Shown: one piece after another, positions 3,650-60,472 of the stretch
Numbering within the stretch: the stretch's first letter is position 1
How the letters are laid out: each line of letters starts with the position of its first letter
Source of the DNA: a virus
Taxonomy: Duplodnaviria; Caudoviricetes
Reading direction: 5' to 3' (one strand)
IMG/VR virus record: IMGVR_UViG_3300035396_000186
Span: 18,210 to 82,209 of that record
DNA length: 64,000 nucleotides
Program-made: the position numbers and the translations under genes
The notes under the pieces: model-generated
What the model saw: the letters and a program-made list of their open reading frames with translations, nothing else
Databases searched by the model: none
Told to the model about the DNA's origin: nothing

Positions 3650-5437
3650 TTAACCCGTAATTATGTTAGCTAATCTTTCTTCTTCAGCTTTTGCGGCTGC
3701 AGCATCTTGATCTGCAAATAGTTTGTTAGCACCAGTTTGATATTTACTACGTAAAGCTTCAATTGCTGCCATTTTATTAGCCGTTTGAGAAGCAACACTA
3801 TTAGCTTGATTATATTGATCTGGAGATTGAACTAATTGCATTAAATTACCAGTTCTAGCTAAGTTAGTAGTATCTAATTCTTTCTTAGCATTCATTATAT
3901 CATTTATATATTTACCACTTCGTTGATCTTGATTCATAGTTGAGCCACCAGCAAAGTATTGTGAACCTAGGAGTGTACTTAACATATCTTTATCTTTTGC
4001 GATACCTTCACTAATTGGATGTAATTCTCCAGTCCATGCAGGAACAACATTCCTAGTGCTCTTCATTATTTCAGCTTCTTTAGCTCTATCAATATCAGTT
4101 TGTCTTAAAGTTCTAGCAGCTTGATATGATTCAGTTCCCGAACCTGCAATTTGACCTTGTTTAGTTGGATCTTCTGAAGCTAGTAAATTAACATCAGTAC
4201 CTAAATATTGTCCTAATTGTCTTCTATCTAATTGTGATGGATCAAATCTTGATAAGAATGAACCTTGTCTTTGTCCTAATGCTTCTAAAGCTTTTTGACG
4301 TTGAAATTCATCATTTCTAGCTAATCTAGCTAAGTCTGCTTGATTGTTTAAGTCTAAATTACCAACATCTTTAATAGTTTTAGTTGGATCGAATCCTGCC
4401 ATATCTAATGACTTCTCAGAACCATATTTATATTTAGCAGCAGCTTCTGGTCCTGAAGCTAATGTTCCTTTACCCATAATACTATTTAAGTAATCTTGAG
4501 CAGGTTTAGATAGCTTATTAAAAGCATCTTGAGTTAAAGCTCCTGAAGATAAGCCTTGACCTAATTGTGCAGATAAATCTTTCATACCTTGACTATATTG
4601 TCCAGCTCTAGCTGTTACATCTGAAGTAATACCAGATAAACCTGAAGTTAATTGTTCTTCAGTGTCTGCTCCAAATTTAGCAGCTTCATTTCTATATAGA
4701 TCAGCTAGTCCAGCAGCAGATTTTTCTTTATTAGTAATATCTTGTGTAATACCAGTTAGACCTCTTCTAGCTTTTGATAAAGCTGATTGATCTCCAGCAC
4801 CCATTAACATCGTATCTAGTTTTTGTGAACCTTGACTATATCCTGGACCACCAATAAATCTTTGAACTAAAGCTTGTCTACCACCAGCATCTGAAGATAG
4901 ATTAGCTAATGACTCAAGTTCTTGAGCACGTTGTTTAAGTTGATCAATTCCTTGACCTTTAATTTCACTTAAAGCAGAAGGACCTTCATATTTACCTGCT
5001 CGAAACTTAGAGAACATATCTATTTGTTCTTGATTAGGATCAGCAAGATTTTGAAATTGTTGTGGAGTTTCAGAAGAAGTAGCTGCAGCAGTACTAGCTG
5101 GAGCAGGATTTGTAGCATTCTGTTCATTTAAAGCTGGTTGGTTAGGATTAACATACTGACCTAAAACTTGTTGTCTCTTCGCAGTATTTTCTTGTGAACC
5201 TAGTCTATTTTGTTCAGCTTGTGTTTTGAATTTACCATATTGACCACTAACTGTACCTTTTAGTTCCCCTGATACATTTTGTAAACCTTGACCAACAGCT
5301 TGTCCGATTCTATTATTTCCACTTGCTCCCATAATTTGTTGCAAATTGGTAAAACCAGTTAACTTTTTTTGTGGAGTTACTGGAGATGTAACACCTTGAA
5401 CTTGCTGATTTGGTTGATTGGGATTATTAATAGCCAT
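3650..5437 (-). CDS. Putative internal virion protein, 595 aa
   Basis: Q/G/A-rich helical protein in ejection-protein cluster. Confidence 0.55.
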   Translation of the reverse strand: MAINNPNQPNQQVQGVTSPVTPQKKLTGFTNLQQIMGASGNNRIGQAVGQGLQNVSGELKGTVSGQYGKFKTQAEQNRLGSQENTAKRQQVLGQYVNPNQPALNEQNATNPAPASTAAATSSETPQQFQNLADPNQEQIDMFSKFRAGKYEGPSALSEIKGQGIDQLKQRAQELESLANLSSDAGGRQALVQRFIGGPGYSQGSQKLDTMLMGAGDQSALSKARRGLTGITQDITNKEKSAAGLADLYRNEAAKFGADTEEQLTSGLSGITSDVTARAGQYSQGMKDLSAQLGQGLSSGALTQDAFNKLSKPAQDYLNSIMGKGTLASGPEAAAKYKYGSEKSLDMAGFDPTKTIKDVGNLDLNNQADLARLARNDEFQRQKALEALGQRQGSFLSRFDPSQLDRRQLGQYLGTDVNLLASEDPTKQGQIAGSGTESYQAARTLRQTDIDRAKEAEIMKSTRNVVPAWTGELHPISEGIAKDKDMLSTLLGSQYFAGGSTMNQDQRSGKYINDIMNAKKELDTTNLARTGNLMQLVQSPDQYNQANSVASQTANKMAAIEALRSKYQTGANKLFADQDAAAAKAEEERLANIITG

Positions 5438-5460: not shown

Positions 5461-5874
5461 TTAATTAACTGCTAGAAAAGTCACACGATAGCTATGTCCA
5501 GGTATTAAACCTGTAATATAACTTATTGAAATTCCATATTGTGTTTGTTCCCAACTAGGAAAAGGTGCGCTATAGAAGTAAGATGCTGGATTTGTTAGGT
5601 TTTCACACTTAATTACTATAATACCAGTAACTTGAGTCATTCCCTCATTTAATTTAAAAGAAGCATTTCCAGTAGGTTTACCATTATTATCTACTATAAT
5701 AGTAATATCTTTAATAGTACTCTGCATATTATCAGCAAATGTTAATTTACGAGATAAGGCTTGGTATATAGCCTCGATACCAGAATTTATGGAAATAGAT
5801 AATTTCGCAATCAAAGCTTGATCATCAGGTTCATAGTCTTTTTCCCACAATCTTTTAAAATTAGGTAATTTCAT
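5461..5874 (-). CDS. Virion structural protein, 137 aa
   Basis: Coupled to tail tubular gene (ATG/TAA overlap at 5874); beta-rich C-terminus. Confidence 0.45.
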   Translation of the reverse strand: MKLPNFKRLWEKDYEPDDQALIAKLSISINSGIEAIYQALSRKLTFADNMQSTIKDITIIVDNNGKPTGNASFKLNEGMTQVTGIIVIKCENLTNPASYFYSAPFPSWEQTQYGISISYITGLIPGHSYRVTFLAVN

Positions 5875-43470: not shown

Positions 43471-43670
43471 GTTTCTATACTCCGTAGGTTATCACAATTT
43501 GCTATAACCTCAATACTATAAATAGAAATACTTTAAGTTTCTATAAGAAGTTGTTACTTAATATTACAATATAAGATCGGGAAAATCAAGCGTATGTATG
43601 TAACCGAATTTGTTAGGAAGTAAAATTATGTTTCTATAGTTAGAATTTACTAAAAATTGTGCTAGCTAAG

Positions 43671-43822
43671 CCTACACCACACCAACCACCAAGCCTACCC
43701 TACCCCCCCTACCTACGTCCTGCCATCCCCATGCCATAGACCTAGCCTCAACCCATAGCCTATACCCTAGCCCATGCCTCATCATGCTGATACTACAGGC
43801 ATACCCATAGACTATACCCTAA
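43671..43822. repeat. C-rich/G-poor tract with imperfect direct repeats
   Basis: CCTACC/CCCATAG units; CCCATAG(C/A)CTATACCCTA at 43752 and 43804. Confidence 0.7.
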
Positions 43823-43912
43823 GCATATACTATTTAGATTATAATACTATAAGCTATTATTGTTTATAGATATACTAAACGTTTTATATACTAGACTATA
43901 TGTTATTGCTAA

Positions 43913-43974
43913 TTGCATAATGCAATATTCTTGCATGAAGGAATTGCAGATTGCAAGATAATTGCACCGTGCAA
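43913..43974. promoter_or_regulatory. Three TTGCA-N3-TGCAA inverted-repeat boxes
   Basis: 43913-43925, 43944-43956, 43962-43974. Confidence 0.55.
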
Positions 43975-44167
43975 TAGTGGATTTGAGGTGAGGGATAAGT
44001 GTTGTTGACCACATCTTTATCCATTCTTTTTATTTATATCCTATTTAGTCTTATCCCATTTGGGATCAGTATATTTTATTTATATATTGATTGTTATATA
44101 AACGTATTATACGACACTAAACTTGTTATAACTTGTATTCCTGCTCAACATATTGTACACTGTCAGT

Positions 44168-44692
44168 ATGATTATATTCCTACTATCTCTACTAATTTCG
44201 TTTAGCTACTCCGCAGATCAACTTGAGTTATCATATTCGTTTCTAAGTTATCATGTTCCTAATAACCCCACAGACTCACACAAGTACTCCAACAAGCTCG
44301 GCAATGGTCAAGCCATAACTAATCCACTCTTAGGACTAAGACGTACCAGAACTAGTAAGAACGGCTCATATGAGGCGTTAACTGTGTTCTCTGGTTCTAA
44401 CAGCGTTGGTACTAATATGTCAGGACTTGTATACTCTACAGGTGAGTTCATCGATTCTAACTGGTACATTGGTTTTGTAGTTGGTGGCTATACTCAATCT
44501 CGTAGTGAGTTCAGACACAGAGGTATTGAGACTATGGGAGTTGGGATCACTCACGATCAAGAGATTCAACCCATTGTTGGGGCAGAAGTAGGCTACAAGT
44601 ATGATATCAATTCTAAGTGGTTTATTAGACAGAACAATGTTATAACCCCATTTATAACTAATCATAGTCTGTCCATAGGGTTCTCGTTCTGA
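44168..44692 (+). CDS. Outer-membrane beta-barrel protein, PagP-like
   Basis: Signal peptide, alternating beta-strands, F-SNSVG and GFVVGGY motifs, terminal Phe. Confidence 0.55.
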   Translation: MIIFLLSLLISFSYSADQLELSYSFLSYHVPNNPTDSHKYSNKLGNGQAITNPLLGLRRTRTSKNGSYEALTVFSGSNSVGTNMSGLVYSTGEFIDSNWYIGFVVGGYTQSRSEFRHRGIETMGVGITHDQEIQPIVGAEVGYKYDINSKWFIRQNNVITPFITNHSLSIGFSF

Positions 44693-44837
44693 TTGACTAG
44701 AGCTGCGCAGTTTGTCACTGATTTAGTATCTCTTTGCTACCAGTTTAGTGTCAATCTGATACCGATGTAGTCAGTATGATACCATCTAGTTTTTATTGAA
44801 CATCCCTGTTATTAAGTACATCCCATTTTCCTAGAGT

Positions 44838-44853
44838 TGGCATTAAGCTTGCA
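44838..44853 (+). promoter_or_regulatory. Sigma54 (-24/-12) promoter
   Basis: TGGCATTAAGCTTGCA: GG-N10-GC with TGGCA and TTGCA boxes. Confidence 0.7.
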
Positions 44854-45001
44854 ATGTATATTGTTAAGCAGGACGAAGCGAGCAGCTTCATGGAGAGTCG
44901 AAGGCGAGCTAGTAGAAGCTCAACGTCTTTAACTCTAAGTTCTAACCGGATAGCTCAAGGGTAACGCTATAGGGGATAACATCCCTACAATCAATCATAA
45001 C

Positions 45002-45073
45002 AAGACGAAATAAGGCGAGTACGTTTAAACGTAGTTGCCTTATAGTACGTTGATAACGTACCTGAAGAGTCTT
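45002..45073 (+). ncRNA. Type II hammerhead ribozyme
   Basis: AAGAC-GAAA-TAAGGC..GCCTTA-TA-GTACGTT(GAT)AACGTAC-CTGAAGA-GTCTT: complete core and stems I-III. Confidence 0.9.
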
Positions 45074-45091
45074 AATAACAAGGGAGTATAT

Positions 45092-45169
45092 ATGACATTT
45101 GAAATATTCTTTTACACAACTGCAATCCTATTAGTATTCAAGTCTATCATAATAACAATGAGCAGATAG
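45092..45169 (+). CDS. 25-aa hydrophobic peptide after ribozyme (not in ORF track)
   Basis: AGGGAG RBS; MTFEIFFYTTAILLVFKSIIITMSR. Confidence 0.45.
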   Translation: MTFEIFFYTTAILLVFKSIIITMSR

Positions 45170-59836: not shown

Positions 59837-60472
59837 ATGCCAGATGAAAAATTGATAAGACAGAAACCATTTTTGGTAGTATTAGATCTGGATGACTGTA
59901 TTGTATCTTTCATGGGAGCTCTATGTCGAGTTCACAATAAGAAGTATGGAACTAGTATAACCCCTAGCGATTTAAATAGCTGGGACTTTAATACGTTAGA
60001 AGTTAAAGATGCTCAAGGTAATGTCGTTAAAGGTGAAGAATTAAGAAAGACTTTTGCTGACTATGAAGCTGAAGGGTTATATGTAGGATTACCATTACTT
60101 GGTGCATCAGATCAAGCTCTTGAGTTTATGAAGAACAAAGGTTATAGAGTTGTAATACTAACTGCTAGAGATGAGAAGTACGGTAAGCAAACTGAACTAA
60201 ATCTAATATTTAATAGAATATACCAGTATGTTGATGAAGTATTCTTTAAAGCTGATAAAGTAAAAAAGATACAGAACTTAAGCAAAGCTTATCATATTGT
60301 TATGTTCGCTGACGATAAAGCCGAAACCGTTCAAAAGGTTATTCAAAATTGTAATGTCGATCATGTGTTCTTGATTGAACAAGCACATAACGAAAATGTT
60401 GAAGTTGACCCTGACGTAAAAAGAGTTAGAGATTTACTAGACACAGTGAGATATTTACGATATACTAAATAA
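59837..60472 (+). CDS. HAD-family 5'(3')-deoxyribonucleotidase-like protein
   Basis: VLDLDDC (DxD), ILTAR, K, FADD motifs; NSWDF. Confidence 0.8.
   Translation: MPDEKLIRQKPFLVVLDLDDCIVSFMGALCRVHNKKYGTSITPSDLNSWDFNTLEVKDAQGNVVKGEELRKTFADYEAEGLYVGLPLLGASDQALEFMKNKGYRVVILTARDEKYGKQTELNLIFNRIYQYVDEVFFKADKVKKIQNLSKAYHIVMFADDKAETVQKVIQNCNVDHVFLIEQAHNENVEVDPDVKRVRDLLDTVRYLRYTK

Follow-up and report, generated by a model that had tools for sequence, protein, structure and literature searches.

Hammerhead ribozymes in phages were proposed by Perreault et al. (2011, PMC3088659) to process polycistronic transcripts. In the haloviruses HF1 and HF2, the first ORF of a polycistronic early transcript is preceded, at 13 nt, by a hammerhead, and the 5′ end of this transcript maps within 3 nt of the cleavage site (PMC3088659), and in Desulfovibrio vulgaris, type II hammerheads located near phage-like genes cleave in vivo (PMC8782182). 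The processing role of such hammerheads was proposed in terms that also called it unproven (PMC3088659, PMC6765202), and the role of the thousands of hammerheads found in genomes is still unproven (PMC6765202). The locus described here belongs to this setting. The first-pass annotation of this DNA, which reported a type II hammerhead at the head of an early operon, could not tie the processing of an early transcript by a hammerhead to any described system; in fact, the role had already been proposed (PMC3088659), with HF1/HF2 as a precedent, and the candidate adds one more case of a device already described and does not stand for a new kind of system.

The candidate has in common with the type II hammerheads of bacteria and phages (PMC3088659; RF02276) the closed stems I and III, the open stem II, the invariant core, and an intergenic position among small phage genes. 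It differs from the RF02276 consensus, in which stem II has 2 bp, loop I has ~10 nt, and the 3′ tail takes part in a pseudoknot; the candidate and the class to which it belongs (see below) have a stem II of 4–5 bp and a loop of 3–4 nt, lack the pseudoknot, and carry a conserved A ahead of stem II. Like the HF1/HF2 hammerhead (HHphage), from which the early transcript's first start codon is 13 nt away, the candidate is found shortly before such a start codon (18 nt); unlike the candidate, HHphage is an archaeal-virus variant with insertions in the core and has a mapped transcript. The intercistronic arrays of type II hammerheads in uncultured phages resemble the candidate in their architecture and in their distance to the next start codon, from which the candidate departs in being single in an 82-kb genome and in having a 309-nt leader, an AUA triplet, and a 34-nt stem III hairpin (A15.1 to U16.1). 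Finally, there are engineered counterparts, of which RiboJ, a synthetic ribozyme insulator, is one. In synthetic insulators and in SD-masking switches (PMC5052635), as would hold for the candidate, the 5′ end of the mRNA is set, or the RBS is freed, by a ribozyme that cleaves itself within a bacterial 5′ UTR; both kinds of device are, however, engineered, and in the present case the mask would be a distal segment of the leader that competes with the ribozyme fold and that lies outside the ribozyme itself.

The phage record comprises 82,209 bp, is 95% complete, and has a GC content of 32%; the window, that is, the whole stretch of 64,000 nucleotides that was analyzed, corresponds to bases 18210–82209 of this record. 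Up to ~43470, the minus strand of the window carries the genes for the head, packaging, and tail (large terminase, portal, protease, major head protein, and tail proteins). On the plus strand, a 68-aa ORF and a 179-aa ORF (44153–44692) are found from ~44000 onward, then a 399-nt gap without a called ORF (44693–45091), with the ribozyme at its 3′ end, and then a long run of small ORFs on the same strand, followed further downstream by genes for the metabolism of nucleotides and DNA, which encode a PD-(D/E)XK nuclease, an RNase T-like exonuclease, a DeoC aldolase, and an NT5C nucleotidase. One of these products, the 211-aa protein encoded by 59837–60472, was considered as an end-healing polynucleotide kinase on a weak PHROG hint, and this assignment was rejected on the basis of Pfam, which makes the protein an NT5C/HAD nucleotidase. 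The ribozyme ends 18 nt before the first ORF of the run, as the first-pass annotation had it, and the ATG of this ORF follows an SD, GGGAG. The features of the locus are collected in Table 1.

Table 1. Features of the hammerhead locus (positions in the window) and, in the last row, type III copies in related contigs (positions in the contig named).
Feature	Position	Strand	Remarks
Type II hammerhead, whole	45002–45073	+	Complete core, three helices
Stem II, 5′ strand	45002–45006	+	AGAC at 45003–45006, including C11.1
Class-conserved A preceding the 4-bp stem II	45002	+	Here also pairs with U45073
Core G12 A13 A14 and A15.1 (GAAA)	45007–45010	+	A45010 pairs with U45043 (U16.1)
Stem III hairpin	45010–45043	+	9 pairs (45010–45018/45035–45043) and inner 5-bp hairpin (45020–45024/45029–45033)
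Predicted cleavage site	45044–45045	+	H17 = A45044 (not G); position from the hammerhead consensus
Stem I hairpin	45045–45061	+	7 bp (45045–45051/45055–45061), loop GAU
Core C3 U4 G5 A6 A7 G8 A9 (CUGAAGA)	45062–45068	+	
Stem II, 3′ strand (GUCUU)	45069–45073	+	G10.1 = G45069, pairs with C45006 (C11.1)
SD and first ORF after the ribozyme	45082–45169	+	SD GGGAG 45082–45086; ATG 45092; 25 aa, hydrophobic
Non-coding leader between the 179-aa ORF and the ribozyme	44693–45001	+	309 nt; GC 42–46% vs. 32%
Leader segment complementary to 45067–45085	44803–44822	+	Alternative to the hammerhead fold
Weaker competitor	44861–44874	+	UUGUUA and AGGAC pair with 45076–45081 and 45069–45073
Type III copies with the SD in stem III	L177 6277–6329; L182 5550–5604; L202 4141–4195; L212 1310–1361; L184 4333–4462	−	

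The leader has a moderate predicted structure, three copies of the heptamer ACATCCC, and a promoter-like site at 44837–44864. ACATCCC occurs five times in the window when both strands are counted, and the three copies on the plus strand of the leader are clustered (44800–44806, 44818–44824, and 44979–44985); the UCCC within these copies is complementary to GGGA in the SD at 45082. Upstream, the divergent control region contains a C-rich, G-poor tract of low complexity (43650–43830; GC ~55%, GC skew ~−0.6), which resembles L181 5973–6079 (71% over 115 nt), a stretch in a related contig. Six ATTGCA/TGCAAT hexamers, which include the palindrome ATTGCATAATGCAAT, are present within 64 bp (43912–43975) and look like an operator array. 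One more copy of this hexamer is found at 44850–44855, inside the promoter-like site, which has been read elsewhere as a sigma-54 promoter; since TTGCA-type motifs also cluster at 43912–43975, the box at 44838–44864 may be an operator copy.

The identification of 45002–45073 as a type II hammerhead is well supported. All the invariant nucleotides of the core are present, as are the A15.1–U16.1 and G10.1–C11.1 pairs and the three helices (7, 5, and 9 + 5 pairs), and each of the elements that the first-pass annotation had listed was found again at its coordinates. RNAfold gives the hammerhead three-way junction as both the MFE and the centroid structure of 44997–45082, at −27.7 kcal/mol, compared with −12.5 ± 2.7 kcal/mol for shuffled versions of this sequence, none of which (0/200) was as stable (z −5.61). 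The candidate shows one deviation in stem III, where the pair U15.2–A16.2 takes the place of the C–G that is usual in the class. A pseudoknot of at least 4 bp between loop I (GAU) and the 3′ tail was sought and none was found, so fast cleavage at the cellular concentration of Mg2+ is unproven; by eye only, UGAU/UUGAU gives a match of 4–5 bp with AUCA/AUCAA in the 5′ tail (44990–44997).

The 8-bp direct repeat ATAACAAG, which had been noticed on either side of the ribozyme (44997–45004 and 45075–45082), proved to be real (shuffle p ~0.004). The idea that such flanking repeats are the mark of an insertion was tried and abandoned: there is no enrichment in them among the 189 class members listed, and mobility is unsupported. 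Both copies of ATAACAAG are complementary to UUGUUA motifs of the leader (44861–44866, and UGUUAU at 44807–44812). A further stretch of the leader, 44871–44900, consists of GGACGAA, 17 nt, and GAGUCG, and is reminiscent of a type II hammerhead reduced to its two halves, with stems I and III missing; from its sequence, it could be a decayed upstream copy, with a match that is non-significant (E 0.97). No significant second hammerhead was found in the leader by the covariance model R1 (see below) with its filters off, the best score elsewhere near the locus being at most 7.2 bits.

How far could chance account for such a motif? A descriptor scan for all three hammerhead topologies, which covered the window and the whole 82-kb genome, returned the candidate as the sole strong hammerhead. 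Simulating the 64-kb window 300 times with a first-order Markov model gave 16 weak look-alikes of type II, none of which had more than 16 uninterrupted stem pairs, compared with 21 in the candidate; extrapolated from these simulations, the chance rate is ~1e-5 per window, which is small, yet not negligible over the ~250,000 windows scanned. The Rfam families were of no help here. The hammerhead families gave no match to the window at the gathering score or at E values up to 10, and RF02276 (Hammerhead_II), for which the Rfam criterion is a covariance score of at least 37 bits and which the first-pass annotation had suggested as a check, gave no match when run alone on the window. In L058, RF02276 picks up a single copy (27.3 bits) and misses five canonical ones, and it likewise fails to detect the clear type II hammerheads of L016 and L023. 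Its model is narrow and misses canonical copies of the class, so its failure on the candidate is uninformative. Nor did the locus itself have close relatives: blastn gave no match among phage records, the upstream 179-aa ORF has no relative in IMG/VR or in a set of 5.8 billion proteins, and a search with the protease gave two distant loci only, both without hammerheads. Since no close relative of the locus was found, the candidate has no covariation of its own.

More distant members of the same class turned out to be abundant. Two pattern scans seeded with stem II of the candidate gave a few other type II hammerheads, and a third, run on IMG/VR and based on the general consensus and a stem I hairpin of 17–18 nt, gave at least 120 stretches, with ~11 expected by chance (an estimate). 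In total, at least 209 type II hammerheads in at least 123 loci (including L057–L176) were obtained. Among the matches listed, stem I has 7 bp in 169/209 copies, and loop I has 3 nt in 101/209 and 4 nt in 67/209, features that the collection pattern largely fixes; GAU, the loop of the candidate, is found in six of the 209 copies listed. Stem II has 4 bp, mostly GGAC/GUCC, in 177 of the 209 copies among the matches listed, and compensatory changes are seen in 13 of the 16 consensus pairs in an alignment of 110 of these listed copies. Three features were left free by the pattern with which most of these copies were collected, namely the A before stem II, the U at position 7 of stem I, and the spacing to the start codon. 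Among the matches listed, 97% of 172 unique copies have an A directly 5′ of the 4-bp stem II, position 7 of stem I is U in at least 90% of the aligned copies, and the distance from the end of a copy to the next start codon (opening at least 50 codons) has a median of 21 nt (IQR 14–28). The candidate carries all of these free features (A45002, U45051, and 18 nt to the start).

The covariance model R1 was built from 110 of the IMG/VR type II hammerheads, with the candidate excluded. Its single match in the 64-kb window is 45003–45072 on the plus strand, at 37.2 bits and, with a rough calibration, E 1.3e-10; the match is full length and has no non-canonical pair. This score and the class features outside the core bear out both the type II call of the first-pass annotation and the cleavage site that it predicted. 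There is a large class of phage type II hammerheads, with a conserved A before stem II, that escapes the model of Rfam, even at E values up to 10. Within this class, the candidate is unusual in two respects. Among the matches listed, a copy starts at a median of 3 nt past the upstream stop codon, and 121/186 (65%) lie within 10 nt of it, whereas the candidate is 309 nt away, a distance that puts it beside the 18/186 copies listed that are >200 nt away. The triplet of the candidate is AUA, whereas it is GUC in 203/209 of the class members listed, most of which were collected with a pattern requiring GTC. Several copies are present in 41 of 123 loci, with successive copies a median of 598 nt apart (among the matches listed).

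The position of the candidate in the genome was examined through the TerL of the phage, which has many relatives with 50–55% identity on contigs of ~78–94 kb; the TerL of the nearest named phage is just 31% identical, so the phage family is uncultured. All of the eight contigs fetched around TerL have the same divergent layout (8/8), and five of the eight (L177, L178, L182, L183, and L184) have R1 matches of 27–57 bits, with canonical copies found by the descriptor scan in four. The class members in these relatives score ~40–57 bits with R1 vs. 37.2 for the candidate. In 80 further IMG/VR TerL loci (~1 Mb), every one of the R1 matches (14/14) is on the strand divergent from TerL. A canonical hammerhead is found at the same place and on the same strand in 13 of the 41 TerL-relative loci that have at least 5.5 kb of upstream flank, and in all but one of these 13, it lies 3.3–6.3 kb before TerL, compared with 5.9 kb for the candidate. 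This synteny and the same-strand hammerheads at the same place support the assignment by the first-pass annotation to the start of a block of early-type genes, and the placement of a hammerhead at the 5′ border of the early genes recurs in this phage family without being universal.

The relatives have peculiarities of their own. Hammerheads frequently occur there in pairs, a type II that directly follows the first gene being accompanied by a type III 300–430 nt downstream (L177, L182, L183, L184, L190/L191, and L212). On the minus strand, these pairs of type II and type III span L177 6277–6656, L182 5550–6030, L183 4790–5173, L184 4333–4916, and L212 1310–1640. The non-coding RNA between the paired hammerheads (~300–400 nt) contains conserved blocks such as CUGACNNGGGANNGAAGGG and, in L177, matches no Rfam family; to judge from its position, it would be excised with a 5′-OH and a 2′,3′-cyclic phosphate. 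In 5/7 distinct type III copies (a count that excludes L190/L191, which are near-identical to L177), the 3′ strand of stem III doubles as the SD of the next gene (AAGGA or AGGAA), whose ATG comes 1–6 nt past the stem; since the SD is the 3′ strand of stem III in these copies, cleavage would separate the anti-SD from the SD. In L184, a gene for tRNA-Glu (UUC) detected by ARAGORN at 4374–4445 (minus strand) is nested in the stem I loop of the type III hammerhead at 4333–4462. L178 contains, on the minus strand at ~5190–5250 and ~5490–5560, two type II variants in which an additional U separates A9 from G10.1 (CUGAUGAU, then stem II), the downstream one of which is 18 nt before an ATG; on sequence grounds, this extra-U core looks like a family-specific variant.

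The explanation that we consider probable is that the candidate is a functional type II hammerhead of the short-loop class, which is abundant between the cistrons of phages, and that, by cutting itself after A45044, it detaches the leader from the early mRNA. The RNA possesses every element that hammerhead cleavage is known to require and occupies a position that is usual for phage hammerheads. From the motif, the membership of the class, and the recurrent genomic position, we infer cleavage in vivo and its effects on the stability and translation of the mRNA. During the transcription of the plus strand, stems III and I would form first, and GUCUU (45069–45073) would then close stem II with AAGAC (45002–45006), after which the RNA would cut itself between A45044 and G45045. 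Scission by a hammerhead produces 2′,3′-cyclic phosphate and 5′-OH ends. The upstream product would end in the stem III hairpin with a 2′,3′-cyclic phosphate and would carry the non-coding leader, along with the 179-aa gene if transcription starts further up. The downstream product, which would carry the array of small early-type genes, would begin with a 5′-OH immediately at the 7-bp hairpin of stem I, and its AUG (45092) would follow 47 nt further on. The early mRNA would in this way acquire a defined 5′ end, and its fate would no longer be tied to that of the upstream sequence.

What such an end would do for the mRNA may vary. In E. coli, a 5′-terminal hairpin and the lack of a 5′ monophosphate reduce the 5′-end-dependent attack by RNase E, whereas in Bacillus, RNase J1 attacks the 5′-OH product released by the glmS ribozyme. 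In view of this contrast between RNase E and RNase J1, the direction of the effect on stability would depend on the host. Of the consequences put forward in the first-pass annotation, a protection from RNase E is hypothetical, as is the release of a discrete upstream RNA of ~180 nt, which would depend on a putative promoter.

A different emphasis is suggested by the leader. The segment 45069–45086 (18 nt), which runs from the 3′ strand of stem II through the SD, is complementary to 44803–44820, and the resulting duplex has an energy of −18.8 kcal/mol, compared with −10.4 ± 1.9 kcal/mol for shuffled leaders, none of which (0/1000) gave as strong a duplex; among control targets, one as strong was found in 1/1500 of the random genomic ones and in 3/496 of the SD-like ones. 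In the MFE structure of 44780–45100, a helix between 44803–44822 and 45067–45085 replaces stem II, covers G8, A9, the spacer, and the SD, and is 3.1 kcal/mol more stable than the hammerhead fold. The weaker competitor (44861–44874) gives, for a transcript starting at 44860, a fold that is 1.7 kcal/mol below that of the hammerhead. A leader switch can be imagined in which 44803–44822 masks both the RBS and the 3′ strand of stem II: transcripts in which the hammerhead forms first would be cut, the anti-SD leader would thereby be detached from the early mRNA, and their translation would be irreversibly on, and those that form the long helix would, in the second half of the same proposal, stay uncut and silent. 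Besides the strength of the complementarity and the MFE of 44780–45100, this reading draws on the presence in the leader of three of the five ACATCCC copies of the window, on the type III hammerheads of the relatives, 5/7 of which use the SD as the 3′ strand of stem III, and on the synthetic hammerhead switches that act likewise (PMC5052635). However, an RNA can adopt either the long helix or the hammerhead but not both, and the 5-bp stem II would probably soon give way to the helix; moreover, the anti-SD segment would be outside the RNA if transcription were to start at the promoter-like site (44837–44864). A similar complementarity of the leader is absent from 10/11 type II hammerheads of the relatives, and long-range anti-SD pairing is absent (z above −3) from 88/90 class members tested, with a mean z of 0.02 for the 90. 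The anti-SD helix of the leader is therefore a one-off, general neither to the class nor to the phage family, and we regard each half of the switch, the cut transcripts that are translated and the uncut ones that are silent, as rather unlikely.

A broader version of this proposal, which we hold to be similarly doubtful, is that the hammerheads of the early arm throughout this family of ~80-kb phages serve as one-way translational gates, in which cleavage disconnects a mask from the SD and so commits the transcript to translation. The RBS of the first early gene would be sequestered by pairing with a strand located upstream of the cleavage site, the mask being stem III in the type III hammerheads of the relatives and the distal 18-bp helix of the leader in the window. 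If true, these gates would be the natural counterpart of the engineered SD-masking ribozyme switches.

It is less likely still that the main purpose of the hammerhead is to form the 3′ end of a functional non-coding leader RNA, in parallel with the RNA of ~300–400 nt that would be excised in the relatives. The leader is indeed non-coding and of raised GC, its last 138 nt (44864–45001) fold moderately better than shuffled sequences (z −2.3), and pairs of hammerheads surround an RNA bearing CUGACNNGGGANNGAAGGG in L177, L182, L183, L184, L190/L191, and L212; the window, however, has no upstream hammerhead, its leader has no sequence similarity to the RNA of the relatives, no CUGACNNGGGANNGAAGGG block, and no Rfam match, and the signal for structure is weak. 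Finally, a chance look-alike or an inactive, non-cleaving relic is very improbable: the number of windows scanned (~250,000 at the extrapolated ~1e-5 per window) could yield a few chance consensus matches, and neither a tertiary pseudoknot nor an Rfam match was found, but the independent class model gives E ~1e-10, the class features outside the core are present, the spacing to the start codon is typical of the class, the strand and place are those of the relatives, and all the positions of the core are intact in a genome of 32% GC.

As a functional, self-cleaving element of the short-loop class, the preferred reading, the candidate adds a well-supported hammerhead at the 5′ boundary of a block of early-type genes in a phage family without a cultured member. 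The by-products of the analysis may outweigh this one copy: they are the class that escapes Rfam, the SD inside stem III of the type III hammerheads, and the unusual helix of the leader that competes with the ribozyme. These by-products bear on whether phage hammerheads control translation besides cutting RNA.
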